This document shows positions 50,032 to 57,428 of a stretch of DNA of 64,000 nt, piece after piece. The DNA is from Candidatus Obscuribacteraceae bacterium (GTDB taxonomy: Bacteria > Cyanobacteriota > Vampirovibrionia > Obscuribacterales > Obscuribacteraceae), in the NCBI GenBank assembly GCA_044226015.1, contig JBGAHS010000001.1:1-64000 (forward strand), written 5' to 3'. Below the pieces are notes generated by a model. It was not told the origin of the DNA. It saw nothing but the letters and a program-made list of their open reading frames with translations, and ran no database searches. The position numbers and the translations under genes are program-made. Numbering within the stretch: the stretch's first letter is position 1; every line of letters starts with the position of its first letter.

Positions 50032-52032
50032 ATGACGACTTTAGATTCCGGCGACCAGAGTGGTATCAAAAGAGTTGGAGATTTGTCCAAGCCTGCTGTT
50101 CCTGCCGCATCAAAAGAAATCAAGTCGAAAGACATTTCAGGAACTGTTCCATCGGATGCCATGACTGCATCTTCTGGAATGAGAGCCGCGAATCTAGATG
50201 CTCGATTGCCTGAGCCGGTATTGTCTGAGACTAATAATGCGGCGGTTTCTCTCGATTGCGCTGGGCTGATAGGAAAAGTCTTGGACGGACGCTTCCGCAT
50301 AATTTCTCGACTTGGGCAGGGTGGAATGTGTGAGGTCTTCAAGGCTGAGCATCTGATCTTGCAGAAGCATCTTGCAATAAAGGTCATGCATGCTGGTGAA
50401 AAGGCTAAAGTGAATGGAATTGAACGTTTTCAGCAAGAGGCGAAAGCGATTAGTACTCTTGATCATCCTTCTATCGTCAAAATTCACGCCTTCGGCTGTT
50501 ACGAAGACAGCAATTTGTATCTTGCAATGGACTATCTTCAAGGAATTGGGCTTGACTGTATTCTTAAAGAGCAGGGTTCATTGTCCTGGCAGGATGCTAA
50601 AAGTATTGCCAGGCAGCTAGCAGAGGGACTTGCTCATGCGCATTCGAGAGGTGTGATTCATCGTGATCTTAAGCCAAGCAATGTTATTGTGCTTGATGGT
50701 GATGGCGCCGCATATGGTGGCAGGGTGAAGATCGTCGATTTTGGGGTTGCCCGTTTGACGGAGAATGCTGGTAAGGAATTGAAGCAACTCACTCTGGCCG
50801 GCAACACATGTGGAAGTCCTCCCTACATGAGTCCTGAACAATGCATGGGGCAGCCAGTAGATGCCCGTTCTGATGTATATTCTCTCGGTGTGATGCTGTA
50901 TGAATTACTTTCAGGAAAACGACCATTTCATGGCAATACCAATTTCGAGATAATGCAAAAGCACATCGAGCAATCTCCCAAGAGGTTCAAGTCACTTGTT
51001 CCAAAGATAAGCATTCCTTCTGACTTGGAAGCTGTGGTGCGTAAATGTCTTGACAAAAATCCCGATTTTCGCTACCAAAATATGAACGAGCTTTTGCAAG
51101 ACCTCGACCAGGTCAAGCCTGAAGCTGCGCCTTCATCGCCAGAGCCCCGCAGTGCTGAGAGTGCTAAAGCTGAGCTATTGAGTTTTGTACGCAGTAACAG
51201 TGCTTTTCTCAGGAATCTGTTACTTTCGATGGTATTGCTTGCTGTGGCTGGTGGTTTTGTCATCAATTACTTGCATAGCCCTGAGTACAAAATCAGTCAA
51301 TTGAAGAGCCAGTATCATGCGATTCCATCGTCTGAGCCCGATCGAATTCAGAAGTCCATATCTTTGCTCGGACAATTAGGTTCACTCGAATTGAAAAACG
51401 GCAACGCTCAGACTGCAGTTTTGAATTTGCAAGATCTCGAAGCTGAACTCAAGAGGCAAACAAGTTCAGTTGCGCAGTGCCACAGTCTTGTTTTGATTGC
51501 AAGGCAGTATAAAAGATTCGGTAAAGGTGCTGATGCGCAAAGACTCTTTGATGAAACCATAAAGTTGCTTGAGGATTTTGTTAATCAATCACATCAGCAG
51601 AGAAATTTCGATCAGCTCGAGGAAGCATCGTTTGAAATACTTCGAATTTGTAGAGATGATGACATGCGAATCGACAGAATGCTCGGTCAGTTTAACGTTC
51701 TGATTCCGCTGTATATTTTCAGAAAAGAATTTTCCAAGGCAGAGACTATGGCCAACCGTTCATTGCAGATTATTCGCTCTCATCCACGAGCAAACAGTAC
51801 CAGTGAAATTGTGGCACTCATGAATCTTGCGTGCGCTCTTGAAGAACAGTCGAAGCTTTTTCAGGCTGAGCGAACCTTAAAATCGGCGTGGGAACTTTGT
51901 ACCAGGAGTTGGTCTGAAGACAGCCCTCTTGCGCGTAATGTTGGTTCGAAACTAATTCAGATTTATCGCGCAGAGGGCAAGCAAAACGAAGCAGATGATA
52001 TTGCTGTGAGAATTGGTTCTCAGTCTAAATAG
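50032..52032 (+). CDS. Hanks-type Ser/Thr kinase with a TM helix and a TPR-like C-terminus
   Basis: GQGGMCEVF, HRDLKPSN, DFG and YMSPEQ. Confidence 0.93.
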   Translation: MTTLDSGDQSGIKRVGDLSKPAVPAASKEIKSKDISGTVPSDAMTASSGMRAANLDARLPEPVLSETNNAAVSLDCAGLIGKVLDGRFRIISRLGQGGMCEVFKAEHLILQKHLAIKVMHAGEKAKVNGIERFQQEAKAISTLDHPSIVKIHAFGCYEDSNLYLAMDYLQGIGLDCILKEQGSLSWQDAKSIARQLAEGLAHAHSRGVIHRDLKPSNVIVLDGDGAAYGGRVKIVDFGVARLTENAGKELKQLTLAGNTCGSPPYMSPEQCMGQPVDARSDVYSLGVMLYELLSGKRPFHGNTNFEIMQKHIEQSPKRFKSLVPKISIPSDLEAVVRKCLDKNPDFRYQNMNELLQDLDQVKPEAAPSSPEPRSAESAKAELLSFVRSNSAFLRNLLLSMVLLAVAGGFVINYLHSPEYKISQLKSQYHAIPSSEPDRIQKSISLLGQLGSLELKNGNAQTAVLNLQDLEAELKRQTSSVAQCHSLVLIARQYKRFGKGADAQRLFDETIKLLEDFVNQSHQQRNFDQLEEASFEILRICRDDDMRIDRMLGQFNVLIPLYIFRKEFSKAETMANRSLQIIRSHPRANSTSEIVALMNLACALEEQSKLFQAERTLKSAWELCTRSWSEDSPLARNVGSKLIQIYRAEGKQNEADDIAVRIGSQSK

Positions 52033-52109
52033 CTTTGTATTGATTCTCTGAGTCCAATTTTTTTTCTTTTTTTTTCTGTGTATTCGTTTTGCAGGAAACC
52101 TTTATGGAG

Positions 52110-52168
52110 AAAGCAAAAACGCACCGGCGACTGCCAGTGCGTTTTTACATCGGGTTGGTTGGGCTGGT
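52110..52168 (-). ncRNA. Candidate sibling sRNA copy 1
   Basis: ACCAGCCCAACCAACCCGAT, hairpin and U tract; promoter at 52175-52206. Confidence 0.65.
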
Positions 52169-52174
52169 GATTAG

Positions 52175-52206
52175 ACTATAGATATTGGAACTGACAAAAT
52201 TGTGAC
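52175..52206 (-). promoter_or_regulatory. GTCAC-N6-GTCAG-N10-TATAGT promoter (also at 52309-52340, 52445-52476, 52664-52695 and 56098-56129)
   Basis: Pentamers and spacing are invariant in five copies while the spacer bases differ; the -10 lies 6 nt before the conserved core. Confidence 0.7.
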
Positions 52207-52243
52207 CTGGAAGAAGAAGTGAATGAGGGGAAGTTTGGAGGAG

Positions 52244-52302
52244 AAAGCAAAAACGCACCGGCGACTGCCAGTGCGTTTTTACATCGGGTTGGTTGGGCTG
52301 GT
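52244..52302 (-). ncRNA. Candidate sibling sRNA copy 2
   Basis: Identical to copy 1; promoter at 52309-52340. Confidence 0.65.
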
Positions 52303-52379
52303 GATTAGACTATAGATATTGGAACTGACAAAATTGTGACCTGGAAGAAGAAGTGAATGCGGGGAAGTTTGGGGGAGAG

Positions 52380-52438
52380 AAAGCAAAAACGCACCGGCGA
52401 CTGCCAGTGCGTTTTTACATCGGGTTGGTTGGGCTGGT
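52380..52438 (-). ncRNA. Candidate sibling sRNA copy 3
   Basis: Identical to copy 1; promoter at 52445-52476. Confidence 0.65.
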
Positions 52439-52596
52439 GATTAGACTATAGATATTGAAGCTGACAAAATTGTGACGTGCTAAGAGATTTGGAAGTGCAA
52501 GAGAACCGCATGTCTTGTGGCAAATAAACTGACCAGATAAAACGGATTCTCTGTGTCCAATTTTCTGTGGATTCGTTTTGCAGGATACCTTTATGG

Positions 52597-52657
52597 AAAA
52601 AGCAAAAACGCACCGGCGACTGCCAGTGCGCTTTTACATCGGGTTGGTTGGGCTGGT
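52597..52657 (-). ncRNA. Candidate sibling sRNA copy 4
   Basis: One stem change (A-U to G-U on the minus strand); promoter at 52664-52695. Confidence 0.65.
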
Positions 52658-52800
52658 GATTAGACTGTAGCTTTTGAAACTGACACAAACGTGACTCGCT
52701 TGGATCAAAATGTTTTGGAAAGAACAACGCACCAGCTTGAGCCGGTGCGCATTTCTACAAGTTTCCACAAAACGATCAATTGAACCGGTAAAATACCATC

Positions 52801-53700
52801 ATGAATTCATTCTGGAAAATTGTCGCTACTCTTCTTTATGCTCTGTTTTTTCCGTCAATGACTTTGGCAGATCAAATCGTAGGGCAACATTACACTCTTC
52901 CTGGAACCCAAGTTCGGGAACTTCATTCTGAAATTGTGGGCATTGATTATCGGCTATACATCAGTCTTCCGAGAGATTACGACAAAGCAAATTCTTCAAA
53001 TTATCCGGTCGTTTTTCTCCTGGATGCGAACTATACTTTTGCGATGTATCAGAGTATAGTCACATTTCTTGCTGATGAAGACGAGCTACCCCCAATGATT
53101 TTAGTGGGAATTGGCTATCGTGATGTCGAGGATGAAAAGCATGGTGCTTTGTTCAAAACGAATCGAACACGGGACTACACGCCATTTCACGTTGCCGCTG
53201 GAGGGTATGGTCCGGAGTTCGATAAGCAATCAGGTGGTGCTAACCGCTTTCTTGATTTTATCGAACAAGAACTCAAGCCATTTCTTGTGGCCAATTTTCG
53301 AATCAAGAAGGATGATTTCACATTGGCAGGCAATTCATTTGGAGGATTGCTAGGTAGTTATGCTTTGCTATCTCGCCCAGGTCAGTTTCAGAGGTTCCTC
53401 ATAGTTAGCCCTTCCCTTTGGTACGATAAACGCAAGATGTTTTCGGTGGAAAACAGTTTTCTTCTAAGCCACAGGGATTTGCCTGCACGTGTTTTCTTTT
53501 GCGTCGGGGGTGACGAACGAGCCAGTCGAGGATTTACCGAGATGGTGGGCGACCTGAAGTCGTTCGTTGGCAAATTGCAAGCACAGAAGTATCCCAAATT
53601 TCGAAGTCAGCTTTGGATAGCGCCAGATGAAGGGCACCACAGCGTATTTGCGCCCGCAGCGATGCGAGGGATGCGTTGGCTGTTCTCAAACTCAAAATGA
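52801..53700 (+). CDS. Secreted alpha/beta hydrolase (IroE/Fes-like esterase)
   Basis: YPVVFLLDAN, RTRDYTP, nucleophile elbow GNSFGG and SPSLW. Confidence 0.9.
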   Translation: MNSFWKIVATLLYALFFPSMTLADQIVGQHYTLPGTQVRELHSEIVGIDYRLYISLPRDYDKANSSNYPVVFLLDANYTFAMYQSIVTFLADEDELPPMILVGIGYRDVEDEKHGALFKTNRTRDYTPFHVAAGGYGPEFDKQSGGANRFLDFIEQELKPFLVANFRIKKDDFTLAGNSFGGLLGSYALLSRPGQFQRFLIVSPSLWYDKRKMFSVENSFLLSHRDLPARVFFCVGGDERASRGFTEMVGDLKSFVGKLQAQKYPKFRSQLWIAPDEGHHSVFAPAAMRGMRWLFSNSK

Positions 53701-53779
53701 ATGAATACGCCGCAGTCGAGGCTTGTTCTTCTCAGAAGCCTGCGCTGCGGCGTATTCACATCGGGTTGGTTGGGCTGGT
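53693..53779 (-). ncRNA. Candidate sibling sRNA copy 5 (type B hairpin and promoter)
   Basis: Same 20-nt core at 53760-53779; 13-bp stem gaatacgccgcag/ctgcggcgtattc; promoter CGCAC-N6-TCCAC-N10-TAGTAT at 53786-53817. Confidence 0.6.
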
Positions 53780-53959
53780 AAGAAGATACTATTGCCAATT
53801 TGTGGAATTTTTGTGCGCAAGAATGTGGGTTACACGTACACAAATCTGTATTGACTTAGCTAGGTTCGCGCTAAATTTAATCTCCGTGACGTACAAAGGT
53901 ACAATTCTGTAATATCTTGTTTTTATTCTCGTTTGTGGATGGCGAGCGAGGGGACGGTA

Positions 53960-55672
53960 ATGGCTGAGGGCGAGAAGGACAAATTGGTTCTTGCGGTTGC
54001 GCCGGAAGATAGCGCTAATTCCTCATCTACGCAACTTAGAAATGAGGCAGATAATGCGTTTAATGAAGCCTATTTCTCAGCCAGGCGCCTCCGCAATGAT
54101 ATTTCTGGCTTACCCCCTGAAGACAGACGCAAGTGGCTGAACGTGGAGATAGAGCTGGTTGAGAGCCAAAACCCAAAATCGCGTGAAGCAACACTTGCGA
54201 AGAGAAAAGAACAGTTTCCTGAATTGGATTTGAAGGCTAGCCAGCTTCTAGACACACTTAAAACGGCAGAAGACTTGCAAGCCCGTTCAGAAGACAAGGC
54301 TCGCAAAGAATACGCTATGAAAAAGTTTGGAACTGAGCTGGTGGCGGACTACTTGCAAGGTGTGCGTTTCCTCGGAATTAGTGAAGGTAAGAAGGACTAT
54401 TTTTCAGGTCTCTTGTCGCCGACAAAGGCAAAGTCCAGCTTGTTTCTCGATTTACCTTCGGATATGAAACTCGGCAATTCTTTGTTTTCTGGCGCAAGAA
54501 CGGATGTATCGTTAACTTCTGTTTGGGCAAAAAGAGAAGCCAGCGAGTTCTCTGCTTACCCCACCTCAGTTGACCGACTGAAACTCCACCAGGACGAGAT
54601 AGTTTCGCGATTTGATGCTATTCTAATGGGCGAATTCGGAAAATTCTTGCGGGACGATATGGCTGCTCTTTTCGGCAGCAAGTATGCTTCTGCTGACGAA
54701 AAAACTGCGTTTGTCAAACAAGTGGCAAGGCTCATGGATGGTACTGACCCTAAATCACCAACCGCACATGCCAATTATTTGCTTGCGTTGCTGATGATCA
54801 GGAATGCGGGAAGTATCGACAGGATAGATCAAGGTAGTAATGGAACATGCGCCATTCAATCGTTGGAAAAGCGATTGATCGCGCGTAACCCAGGGCTTTT
54901 GTCAGAAAAAATGGTAGACCTGATGCTAAATGATAAGTTCGAGTTTGGTACCGCAGGTAGTACTGTCTCGTTGAAGCCTGAGTGGAAGTATTCGTCAAAT
55001 CCTAATTCCTATGCATACCCACCAATAGATGGGGAACGGAATTTCGCCAGTCATGTGGCAACAATGGTATTAGCAAATGCGCGATTTGAGCTGCACAATA
55101 AAAGCTATGGCACACAACTCCGCTATGGTCAGCATGAGGGTAAAGATGCTCTTTTCGATTGTTCAGGGAAAGAACCAAAGCTGGTCTACGGAGTTTCGGG
55201 CAAGAAAGTTGACCTTGAGCCTGTTGCAATAAGGAATACGTGGAAAGGAACAGAGAAGCTGCACAAAAAGCCGGTCTCTGATCCAATGGTTAGTTTGTCA
55301 AATGTGCTCGATACTTATGAGGCTTTCACTGGGCAGAGCGCTTCGAAGATTTCGCTGCAGTCCTATGATGCGGCGCGTCTTCCAGGGTCTTTGTATCAAC
55401 TACTGACGGCAACCGAAGATGTTCGAGATAAGAGAGCTCTGGTATACAGGAACCCAGGAGAGCTAGAGGAGCAGTTATTGCAAGCAAAACAGAGAGACGC
55501 TTACCCACTTCTTTTTCAGCAGCCGGGACATTTGACCACGGTCAATTACTACGATAGTACAAGAAGACGAGCGGGTTACGACAATCAATGGGGGAAAGCG
55601 AATGACGCGAAAGGAGGGCTTTCGCCTGAGTCTTTAAATAAGTTTGGCGACATGATCGTAGTCTTTAAATGA
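53960..55672 (+). CDS. Orphan protein with papain/calpain-like Cys-His-Asn motifs
   Basis: IDQGSNGTC, GHLTTV and DNQWG; ATG at 53960 after GAGGGG. Confidence 0.7.
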   Translation: MAEGEKDKLVLAVAPEDSANSSSTQLRNEADNAFNEAYFSARRLRNDISGLPPEDRRKWLNVEIELVESQNPKSREATLAKRKEQFPELDLKASQLLDTLKTAEDLQARSEDKARKEYAMKKFGTELVADYLQGVRFLGISEGKKDYFSGLLSPTKAKSSLFLDLPSDMKLGNSLFSGARTDVSLTSVWAKREASEFSAYPTSVDRLKLHQDEIVSRFDAILMGEFGKFLRDDMAALFGSKYASADEKTAFVKQVARLMDGTDPKSPTAHANYLLALLMIRNAGSIDRIDQGSNGTCAIQSLEKRLIARNPGLLSEKMVDLMLNDKFEFGTAGSTVSLKPEWKYSSNPNSYAYPPIDGERNFASHVATMVLANARFELHNKSYGTQLRYGQHEGKDALFDCSGKEPKLVYGVSGKKVDLEPVAIRNTWKGTEKLHKKPVSDPMVSLSNVLDTYEAFTGQSASKISLQSYDAARLPGSLYQLLTATEDVRDKRALVYRNPGELEEQLLQAKQRDAYPLLFQQPGHLTTVNYYDSTRRRAGYDNQWGKANDAKGGLSPESLNKFGDMIVVFK

Positions 55673-55693
55673 GGCGATGATCAGAAAAATTGG

Positions 55694-55765
55694 AAATGAA
55701 AACGCCACAGACAGGCTTTAAGAGCCATTACTGCGGCGTATTCATATCGGGTTGGTTGGGCTGGT
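55694..55765 (-). ncRNA. Candidate sibling sRNA copy 6 (type B)
   Basis: Core at 55746-55765; stem has a G-U pair on the minus strand; promoter at 55773-55804. Confidence 0.6.
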
Positions 55766-56032
55766 AAGTAAGATACTATTGCCAAATTGTGGAATTTTTG
55801 TGCGCAAAAAAGTTGCTTCCACGTACAGCAAATCTGATTTGCCCTCGCAAGGTTCGCGCTAAATCTAATCAGAGTGTTCGCCGCACCAAGGCGAACGTAA
55901 CTTTGCCAATTTGTTCTGAAATTGATGCAGTCGCTGTTCGGGTCAAGCAGTTGGAAGTAGCTCTGGAATAGGATGTATGTTTTTCGCTGAATCTTAGCGC
56001 GAAGTTGAAAATCAAAGCATCAATTCTTGCTC

Positions 56033-56091
56033 AAAGCAAAAACGCACCGGCAGATGCCAGTGCGTTTTTACATCGGGTTGGTTGGGCTGGT
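56033..56091 (-). ncRNA. Candidate sibling sRNA copy 7 (type A)
   Basis: Core at 56072-56091; same stem with a different loop; promoter GTCAC-gaagat-GTCAG-N10-TATATT. Confidence 0.65.
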
Positions 56092-56294
56092 GAATTAAAT
56101 ATAAGATCGTTAGCTGACATCTTCGTGACATTGAGGTACCACCTGCCAGATCTTCCGAAAGTTCTATCATGAGGCTGATTCTGGGCTTTTTTTTCTTTTC
56201 AAAGAATTAGTTGGGCAGGGAAGACTAAACGAGATCTCTTGCTAACTTCCCGGCGCTGTGAAATGATGCTCAGCCTGCGTTTAGAGCTAATTGT

Positions 56295-57428
56295 ATGCAA
56301 CTCGGTTCCGCAGTTCTGGAAAAAACGTCAGCTTCCACGTCGGAGGCTACTGTTGCATCGCCAATTTCATACCTTCCTTTTCTTGATGGATTGCGTGCAA
56401 TTTCAATTCTCCTGGTGTTGGGTTTTCACCAGCTTGGACCTGTTACGGGGTGGATTGGTGGGCAATTGAATGGATGGGTTGGCGTAGACCTGTTCTTTAT
56501 TATCAGTGGCTATCTGATCAGTTCAATATTGCTTAAAGAGCAAGAAAAAAAAGGAACTTTCAGTCTAAAGAACTTCTATGTGCGCCGTTGGCTGAGGATT
56601 TGTCCTGCATACTATACGTTTTTGCTTTTTATGCTGGGTTTTATGTTATTCCGTGGTGGTTCTGATTTCTCAGCCTTCGCGATGGCAGGGCTTTATTTAA
56701 CTAACATTGATATGTGCGCGTCATGGGGGCTGATTCCTGCTACGACTGGATTGTTGCATTCGTGGTCTCTTAGCGTGGAAGAACAGTTTTACCTGTTGTG
56801 GCCAGGCGCTATGAAATTGTCTGGTAAACGAGCATTCGCCGTCTGTATGTTCGTTCTGGTTGCGGCCTATTTGTGGAGATTTTATCTAGCCAGTACAGGT
56901 GCCTCATGGCTTCGCCTGTCGGTTGGTCTTGATACCAAGCTCGATTCGATTATGTTGGGTGTTGCAGTTGCTTTCCTCTGGCGTAGTGAGATGTGGCGCA
57001 ACAAATTGATGCTGATCAAATCGTCTCTCGCTCAGTGTTTTATCGGGGTGGCGTTGCTTGTGGCATGCCATTTCTTGGGTCACCCAGCAACAGAGACTAA
57101 TCAGGTGTTGTTTTGGGGTGTGAAACTACCAGTGGTGCTGATGCTCATGGTGGCATTGTTGGTCAGCTTGCTCGCTAATCAGACTAGCAGGCTTGCAGCG
57201 GTTCTATCTAGCAAGCCCATGATTTGGGTTGGACGCTTGTCCTACAGCCTCTATCTCTGGCATGTAATCGTGAATTTCCCTTGTACAGACGGAATATTTC
57301 AGGCGCTTTGCCACCATAAGCGGTATCTTGTTGAATTGGCAAAATATGCAACTTGCATTGGCTTCGCTTCTGCTTCGTATTACTGGGTTGAGCAACCCTT
57401 TCTTAAGCTAAAAGGAAAGTTCTCATAG
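56295..57428 (+). CDS. Acyltransferase family 3 (OafA-like O-acetyltransferase)
   Basis: LDGLRAISILLV, GVDLFFIISGYLI, HSWSLSVEEQFY and SYSLYLWH. Confidence 0.93.
   Translation: MQLGSAVLEKTSASTSEATVASPISYLPFLDGLRAISILLVLGFHQLGPVTGWIGGQLNGWVGVDLFFIISGYLISSILLKEQEKKGTFSLKNFYVRRWLRICPAYYTFLLFMLGFMLFRGGSDFSAFAMAGLYLTNIDMCASWGLIPATTGLLHSWSLSVEEQFYLLWPGAMKLSGKRAFAVCMFVLVAAYLWRFYLASTGASWLRLSVGLDTKLDSIMLGVAVAFLWRSEMWRNKLMLIKSSLAQCFIGVALLVACHFLGHPATETNQVLFWGVKLPVVLMLMVALLVSLLANQTSRLAAVLSSKPMIWVGRLSYSLYLWHVIVNFPCTDGIFQALCHHKRYLVELAKYATCIGFASASYYWVEQPFLKLKGKFS

Follow-up and report, generated by a model that had tools for sequence, protein, structure and literature searches.

The closest described counterparts of the element treated here, a 20-nucleotide (nt) seed that recurs with a hairpin behind it in a 64,000-nt stretch of Candidatus Obscuribacteraceae bacterium DNA (GCA_044226015.1, contig JBGAHS010000001.1, positions 1 to 64,000, which is C11:1-64000 in our numbering of the genome; hereafter, the window), are families of sibling small RNAs (sRNAs). 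In enterobacteria, OmrA and OmrB are tandem siblings of 82-88 nt whose near-identical first 21 nt carry all the regulation known to the cited account, and they are under OmpR-family two-component control (PMC4211561). NsiR1 of heterocyst-forming cyanobacteria, an RNA of about 60 nt, is described as present in 12 tandem copies, each of which has its own promoter with a regulator motif (PMC9045159), and the multicopy sRNA LhrC1-5 of Listeria is described as dependent on the response regulator LisR (PMC4132741, PMC5880928). Judged from sequence, the repeats in the window are a new sibling-sRNA family of this known kind, similar to OmrA/B and NsiR1 and a member of neither, with predicted transcripts and targets. 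We consider it probable that each repeat is a stand-alone gene for an sRNA of 60-85 nt, whose 5' seed would pair with G/U-rich leaders of messenger RNAs (mRNAs) and whose transcription would be activated by a regulator of the OmpR/PhoB type.

The repeats resemble OmrA/B in being tandem siblings with a conserved 5' end and a predicted OmpR-type control. They differ from OmrA/B in having no sequence similarity to them and no Rfam match, in reaching up to 14 copies and in a 3' end that is conserved in structure, not in sequence; feedback on the regulator, which is known for OmrA/B, was tested and is unsupported here. With NsiR1 they share tandem copies with individual promoters and the same phylum-level lineage, whereas the sequence and the promoter motif are different (DIF1/HetR in the one case, an 11-bp direct repeat in the other), the host is nonphotosynthetic, and the repeats do not run antisense to a hetF-like leader. 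LhrC RNAs carry C-rich pairing motifs, several UCCC motifs being placed in their loops and linkers. The RNA predicted here is unlike LhrC in having one single-stranded 5' seed and one hairpin, and it has no Rfam match.

The seven copies in the window and their predicted promoters are as follows.

52104..52168, minus strand: sRNA copy 1, type A hairpin; predicted +1 at 52168; 73.4 bits with model R1, which was built from these copies
52169..52207, minus strand: predicted promoter of copy 1; direct-repeat box 52190-52207, -10 hexamer TATAGT 52175-52180
52238..52302, minus strand: sRNA copy 2, type A, in a 134-136-bp tandem duplication; fold and model match
52303..52341, minus strand: predicted promoter of copy 2; box 52324-52341, -10 52309-52314
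52374..52438, minus strand: sRNA copy 3, type A; fold, duplication comparison and model match
52439..52477, minus strand: predicted promoter of copy 3; box 52460-52477, -10 52445-52450
52593..52657, minus strand: sRNA copy 4, type A; fold and model match
52658..52696, minus strand: predicted promoter of copy 4; box 52679-52696, -10 TACAGT 52664-52669
53692..53779, minus strand: sRNA copy 5, type B, long hairpin; fold and model match
53780..53818, minus strand: predicted promoter of copy 5; box 53801-53818, -10 TAGTAT 53786-53791
55687..55765, minus strand: sRNA copy 6, type B; fold and model match
55766..55805, minus strand: predicted promoter of copy 6; box 55788-55805, -10 TAGTAT 55773-55778
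56027..56091, minus strand: sRNA copy 7, type A; fold and model match
56092..56130, minus strand: predicted promoter of copy 7; box 56113-56130, -10 TATATT 56098-56103

The first-pass annotation of the window had reported seven exact copies of the seed, all intergenic and in one orientation, and this was borne out: the seed stands at 52149, 52283, 52419, 52638, 53760, 55746 and 56072, always on a single strand (the minus-strand reading), with no further match in the window at up to three mismatches and none in any of 100 dinucleotide shuffles of it. All seven fall between long plus-strand open reading frames (ORFs) at 50032-52032, 52801-53700, 53960-55672 and 56295-57428, the products of which are a Ser/Thr kinase, an esterase, a 570-aa hypothetical protein and an acyltransferase. 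The same annotation had placed a -10 hexamer 6-7 nt before the seed and distinguished two hairpin types, and indeed TANNNT is found at 6 nt in six copies and at 7 nt in one, and the hairpin is type A in five copies and type B in the other two. What it had missed were a direct-repeat box upstream of the -10 hexamer and five more copies in the genome. The assembly (8.19 Mb, 92% complete) contains 12 copies, of which nine are exact and three have one mismatch, and no more at up to three mismatches; in the latter three, T replaces C at seed position 11, and the hairpin is of a third type. The predicted unit is thus composed of the box, 9 nt, the -10 hexamer, 6-7 nt, an unpaired C/A-rich seed of 20 nt, the hairpin and a U-rich end.

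The promoter part of this unit was defined on 78 seed matches, eight of which were dropped as incomplete or without hairpin, leaving 69 distinct upstream strings. The box is 18 nt in length and consists of two half-sites 11 bp apart, with a consensus of about KKYCACR-N4-TKYCASR. It lies exactly 9 nt before TANNNT in 64 of the 69 promoters, and the -10 hexamer precedes the A of the seed by 6 or 7 nt in 65 of them; the five outlier promoters have negative box scores. The -35 element is missing, since the best match to TTGACA does not exceed three of six positions in any of 63 promoters (63/63), and a generic sigma-70 scan overlooked all seven window promoters because they are without a -35 hexamer. 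A direct repeat at -39 to -22 in place of the -35 element is the geometry of PhoB/OmpR-type activation, and the arrangement presumably resembles that of the Pho box.

The RNA part of the unit is supported by folding and by covariation. On the minus strand, the seven window copies fold with z scores of -5.25 to -6.76, no shuffle out of 200 being equally stable, and the seed is unpaired or weakly paired in these folds. The mean unpaired probability of the seed is 0.92. The view that structure is kept while sequence changes, also put forward in the first-pass annotation, holds: for the hairpin, 114 cells of a plain MAFFT alignment were changed on both sides of a pair against 44 ± 7 in shuffles (0/500), a value above all slid controls, and on a model-fitted alignment of 90 distinct rows, 92.9% of the hairpin was paired and 13 of 13 pairs showed compensatory change, with the reservation that a model-fitted alignment leans toward the structure and that related sequences inflate covariation shuffles. 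The associated claim, that the stem is asymmetric between strands, stands for type A, whose plus-strand fold has a z score of only -1.31, so that the minus strand is favored, and falls for type B, which is about equally stable on the plus strand (-40.6 versus -39.2 and -29.5 versus -28.2 kcal/mol). Over 49 copies from many genomes, from which a covariance model was built, 75 G-U pairs are found on the seed strand and 33 on the other, and the more stable strand is the seed strand in 31 of the 49 and the other strand in 11. A generic terminator scan picked up four of the seven hairpins. Seed positions 1-10, 12, 14, 16 and 17 are invariant in the 49 aligned copies, the invariance of positions 1-10 and 12 being partly fixed by selection because the copies were chosen by seed pattern, and position 11 alternates between C and U. 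Even where hairpins and spacers have diverged completely, the seed is the same from copy to copy, across genera and contigs. An AUG occurs at +19 in 19 of the 49 copies and is then always followed by a stop codon, with all three stops in use, which is probably a by-product of the hairpin base.

At up to two mismatches the seed is present in all seven relatives of the same genus and in none of 33 other genomes, and the covariance model at E<1e-6 finds it in 10 of 107 genomes of the order, namely eight of this genus and two of a sister genus (g43), with 1-14 copies in each carrier. In a collection of 185,579 genomes, 111 stretches match the seed, and all the multicopy stretches among them are from Candidatus Obscuribacterales or Obscuribacteraceae records; on visual inspection, neither promoter nor terminator was apparent at the 58 single matches outside Obscuribacterales among the first 80 of the 111 loci, and these matches were treated as chance. 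Metagenome contigs carry further arrays (of 10 stretches, six were true copies and three apparently chance), and four matches on viral contigs are not true copies, having neither promoter nor hairpin. Single diverged homologs with the same promoter and a terminator exist in three more genera (G082, G087/G088 and G078), where the seed has drifted and remains C-rich. A loose pattern of promoter plus 8-mer gave mostly noise outside the two carrier genera, and a second homolog pattern, which by design does not catch the genus itself, gave only four distant homologs above the control level. The main cluster is orthologous in three genomes (G001, G002 and G007), where it lies between lepA-SUFU(-kinase) and kinase-permease genes; it adjoins lepA/SUFU or kinase-permease genes at contig ends in two others (G003 and G006) and is near the permease in G084 and G085. 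Because the genera with diverged homologs come next when ranked by the identity of a conserved regulator, a single origin within a clade with later amplification seems reasonable. Read as sRNA amplification, the family is a clean natural series that runs from a single diverged copy, as in three of the genera, up to 14, with a frozen seed and a free terminator.

The first-pass annotation had not recognized the repeats as any known family, and the searches agree with that. Rfam 15 covariance models gave no match at the gathering threshold in the whole window, the families at issue being Qrr, LhrC, cuckoo/CcsR, OmrA-B, Yfr1/Yfr2 and, where curated, NsiR1; a permissive search gave at best 25.3 bits against a gathering threshold of 68 and 19.9 against 40, both covering the hairpin only, and eight further loci, including three distant homologs, also had no match. 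In the open-access literature, supplements excluded, we found no regulatory RNA or regulon described for Melainabacteria/Obscuribacterales and nothing relevant for the first ten letters of the seed. The proposal of a multicopy sibling-sRNA family made in that annotation is supported by features predicted from sequence: several related copies with a conserved core (12 here, 1-14 in the carriers), each in intergenic DNA with what reads as its own promoter of fixed geometry and its own intrinsic terminator, and an invariant unpaired seed, a covarying hairpin and the lack of an Rfam match.

The box extends beyond the sRNAs. With a relaxed pattern of box plus -10 hexamer, this genome has 32 matches against six for a reversed control, and 27 against one in intergenic DNA; the 27 comprise 10 sRNA copies and 17 other promoters, 14 of which have a gene within 500 nt. 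The genes that it would drive encode mostly hypothetical proteins with polar N-termini, some of them very large, with scattered FHA, thioredoxin, amidase and weak RHS matches. Across the order, a stricter pattern has 668 matches in 102 of 107 genomes against 38 for the control, and another count gave 154 against 23; of the 103 other genomes in the family, 101 have the box, and the stricter pattern has no match in three genomes of another family. As predicted from its geometry and spread, the box is a PhoB/OmpR-type promoter motif, apparently undescribed, that marks a family-wide regulon.

Among the 41 OmpR-family regulators in the genome, the best candidate for the activator of the box promoters is an orphan regulator at C1:605459-606130 (L225:1066-1737). 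It is 86-97% identical within the genus, its orthologs have a nearly invariant recognition helix (30/30 loci), and a box lies within 600 nt downstream of the regulator in 11 of 30 ortholog loci, compared with none of 30 for a control regulator. We treat this assignment as a lead because the search at E<=1e-88 did not find the regulator in many genomes that bear the box. In the cyanobacterial RpaB/HLR1-PsrR1 circuit, as covered by the cited accounts, an OmpR-family direct-repeat box likewise controls an sRNA, and HLR1 has a 10-bp period, with 8-nt repeats and a 2-nt spacer, near -51 or -5 (PMC6525291, 10.1101/443713). The box described here differs from HLR1 in its 11-bp period and its position at -39 to -22, so that the promoters do not have the make-up of an RpaB regulon. 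An RpaB ortholog is encoded in this genome, and its candidacy is disfavored by its presence in all three genomes of the other family, where the box has no match, as well as by the difference in motif. As for the Pho regulon, in which the box would stand before phosphate-uptake genes (pstS, phoBR), no PF12849 gene was found in this 92%-complete genome, and no box lies within 300 nt of the probable phoB operon regulator.

Several observations concern the box-driven transcripts of the wider family. The activator-type motif CACR-N4-TKYCACR-N9-TANNNT stands family-wide before many hypothetical genes besides the sRNAs. Three tandem box promoters about 188 bp apart occur in one genome (G048:C163, 161-565), and two others have unusually many boxes (27 in G079 and 24 in G080); they could be further tandem sRNA arrays built on another seed. 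In several noncarrier genera (L330, L331, L332, L333, L334, L336 and L338), the box-driven transcripts start with long unstructured C-rich leaders, which take the place of a separate C-rich sRNA. A second conserved motif of about 25 nt, composed of a short hairpin and a purine run, is present in box-driven leaders of at least four genera (C11:499500-499800, plus strand; L351, L402, L408, L459, L550, L580, L659 and L681); it had no Rfam match in the five loci scanned and could be another noncoding RNA or a cis-element.

The proposed mode of action can be outlined as follows. A dimer of the activator would bind the 11-bp-period box, which would stand in for the -35 element, and in every copy sigma-70 polymerase would initiate on the A of the seed and terminate where the hairpin passes into the U-rich end. 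The open C/A-rich 5' end would then pair with G/U-rich leader sequence. Local tandem duplication would raise the dose up to 14 copies, and the terminator would drift under structural constraint only. The targets are the least certain part of this scheme. In this genome, box-driven leaders pair with the seed at -12.9 kcal/mol compared with -9.5 kcal/mol for ordinary upstream regions (p 0.003), with one of 40 shuffled seeds and three of 200 leader shuffles performing as well. For the genus, a set of 67 intergenic leaders from six relatives was drawn from 86 non-sRNA matches in 120 loci, with 17 further matches lacking a locus, and these 67 pair with the seed above composition shuffles (z -5.4, 0/100), against a z score of -0.27 for 81 box-driven leaders from genomes with no known copy, a subset of the noncarrier matches. 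The most enriched 6-mer in the genus leaders is the complement of seed positions 1-6, and the C variant of the seed performed better than 60 of 60 shuffled seeds in a clustered test with dinucleotide shuffles. The signal lies at +1 to +30 (-1.93 ± 0.56 kcal/mol, p 0.0017, 42 ortholog clusters), none being seen in four other leader intervals or in noncarriers, and several ortholog sets retain two-part seed sites at the extreme 5' end. Strong predicted sites are present in the leaders at C11:1031330, C11:502270 and C10:304419 (plus strand) of this genome and at loci L460, L407, L358 and L401.

In this genus, the targets would thus likely include the first 30 nt of the box-driven mRNAs themselves, which would make a feed-forward loop. 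For sites right at the 5' end and far ahead of the start codon, the natural outcome would be that the mRNA is protected from RNase J; in short leaders, the same pairing would block the ribosome. Protection of 5' ends from RNase J has, in the cited account, been shown for RoxS/yflS and is cited there for FasX/ska (PMC5419742). The parallel with RoxS and FasX is that RNase J is encoded (two RNase J-like genes, C8:203100 and C5:100522) and that the predicted sites in this genus are at +1 to +30, and the difference is that in the known cases a single-copy sRNA acts on a single target, whereas here many co-regulated transcripts are predicted as targets, without replication in the sister genus. In its full form, the scheme has the orphan OmpR-type activator driving up to 14 sRNAs along with a set of mRNAs whose protein products are lineage-specific and probably exported, and the sRNAs would cap the first 30 nt of these mRNAs against RNase J across the regulon; we regard it as a rather unlikely extension. 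If it were true, an sRNA family of an uncultured Melainabacteria lineage would act mainly by protecting the 5' ends of many targets and would be tuned through its copy number, and if the pairing at 5' ends holds, a mechanism known from a few single targets would be widened to a whole regulon. The lineage would also gain a defined sRNA gene, a promoter motif and a candidate master regulator, which can be tested in E. coli or cyanobacterial reporters, the host being uncultured. An Hfq-like ORF (C7:624641-624775; L251) scores 25.6 bits against a Pfam cut-off of 27.

A number of results weigh against activated sRNA genes that pair with leaders. The start sites used throughout are themselves predicted from the DNA, and RNAalifold on the raw alignment returned no consensus structure. 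Around the start codons of 5768 roughly called genes, 95 regions reached -18 kcal/mol or lower, compared with 34-130 for six shuffled seeds, so that no genome-wide signal emerged. In the 60-nt leaders, the effect fell to -0.78 ± 0.48 (p 0.09) under dinucleotide shuffles with 43 ortholog clusters and to p 0.08 against noncarriers, and the +1 to +30 interval was picked after inspection of the data. In the sister genus, where 5-9 copies share this seed, a replication set in advance found nothing (-0.13 ± 0.48, p 0.48, 29 leaders), and the distant carriers (18, 10 and 12 leaders) showed no set-wide match to their own seeds, with one or two anecdotal fits. The best single target in this genome, a response regulator at C4:388336 with both a box and a seed site, suggested feedback of the OmrA/B kind, which was rejected as the seed site is missing in six of six genus orthologs. 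The candidate activator at C1:605459 has no seed site (-4.4 kcal/mol), and a search at E<=1e-88 did not find it in 49 of the 107 genomes; many of these carry the box, as do several of the genera concerned. Because the sister-genus test was null and the distant carriers lacked a set-wide match, the target model is limited to one genus, where sequence comparison supports it; pairing with G/U-rich leaders, as envisaged in the first-pass annotation, thus has partial support in the genus itself and failed in its sister. For 93 proteins with a polar N-terminal motif, the start-codon pairing difference was marginal (-1.9 versus -0.7 to -1.9 for 25 shuffled seeds), and this test is partly circular because it was the target list that first drew attention to the class.

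The same null results in the genome-wide and sister-genus comparisons would be expected if the transcribed RNAs were decoys or sponges, in which two ACC(A)RCCC-like units of the seed titrate an RNA-binding protein or another sRNA and additional copies add capacity. CsrB and RsmY titrate CsrA in this manner. A seed that is near-invariant over its full length, internally repeated and unpaired would suit this role, whereas the C/U alternation at position 11, which keeps the pair with G, the drift of distant seeds that nevertheless stay C-rich and the complementary sites in the leaders of the genus speak for pairing with RNA, and the single hairpin and the lack of GGA loops do not fit a CsrB-like sponge; we hold titration to be unlikely. 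It is much less probable that the repeats are bidirectional terminators, or duplicated promoter-terminator DNA without a functional RNA, and that the seed was carried along by recent duplication or gene conversion. Copies 5 and 6 do lie at the 3' ends of convergent plus-strand genes, type B hairpins do fold on both strands, and copies 1-3 are 134-bp duplications with a mutual identity of 84-99%, but the constancy of the seed among copies with diverged hairpins and spacers, across genera and contigs, the spacing of box and -10 hexamer in 64 of 69 promoters and the preference of type A hairpins for the seed strand are not explained in this way.

Pairing of the seed with 23S ribosomal RNA, which would modulate ribosome assembly or activity, is very improbable. 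The 23S gene of this genome contains a 10-nt complement of seed positions 3-12, in what we take to be the helix-92 A-loop, and the C/U alternation at position 11 retains the pair; this stretch, however, covers only 10 of about 19 conserved bases and leaves the invariant C2 mismatched, a chance 10-nt match in ribosomal RNAs has a probability of roughly 5%, and the diverged homologs alter position 5, whereby the match is lost. A mobile repeat, akin to miniature inverted-repeat transposable elements (MITEs) or repetitive extragenic palindromes (REPs), might be suspected from multicopy, palindromic and in part dispersed sequences. That reading is largely refuted and has only the faintest probability: hundreds of dispersed copies with target-site duplications, by which the first-pass annotation would have recognized such an element, were not seen, the carrier genomes having 1-14 copies, most of them at a single orthologous locus; the ends of five window copies show neither terminal inverted repeats nor target duplications, and the matches on viral contigs lack promoter and hairpin. 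Hardly any probability is likewise left for a micro-ORF or start-stop element as the functional part, even if all 19 AUG-bearing copies place a stop directly after the AUG, because 30 of the 49 copies have no AUG, the upstream seed, being C-rich, cannot take the role of a Shine-Dalgarno sequence and the stop triplet belongs to the hairpin as its purine-rich base; in the plus-strand reading, a stop arises in the sole candidate frame with the C11-to-T variant.

Three further features lie within the array of sRNA genes.

52727..52750, minus strand: type-A-like hairpin without a seed, just upstream of the copy 4 promoter, from terminator scan and sequence
52801..53700, plus strand: putative esterase gene inside the array, ending at the copy 5 hairpin; PF00756, E 1.4e-20
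53960..55672, plus strand: gene for a 570-aa hypothetical protein between the duplicated copies 5 and 6; ORF, motif class

The seedless hairpin is likely a decayed eighth copy. The duplication that gave rise to copies 5 and 6 is visible in that 55770-55870, the promoter region of copy 6, repeats 53783-53882 in the copy 5 region. The 570-aa protein matched no family and resembles hypothetical clusters of Melainabacteria, and its gene is preceded by a degenerate box with TANNNT at the usual distance (53895-53930, plus strand), divergent from the copy 5 promoter. Together with about 90 other proteins, this product has a polar N-terminus and, within its first 60 residues, the helix motif A(S)xxLxxE/DA, and it has no hydrophobic signal peptide; the shared motif is possibly an export signal of unknown type, and an FlhA/type III secretion system export gate was not found in the genome. 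Elsewhere in the genome, 18 transfer RNA (tRNA) genes are arrayed within about 2.3 kb at C10:356333-358584, which suggests an acquired tRNA island, and a tRNA-Sec gene is located at C11:1300243.

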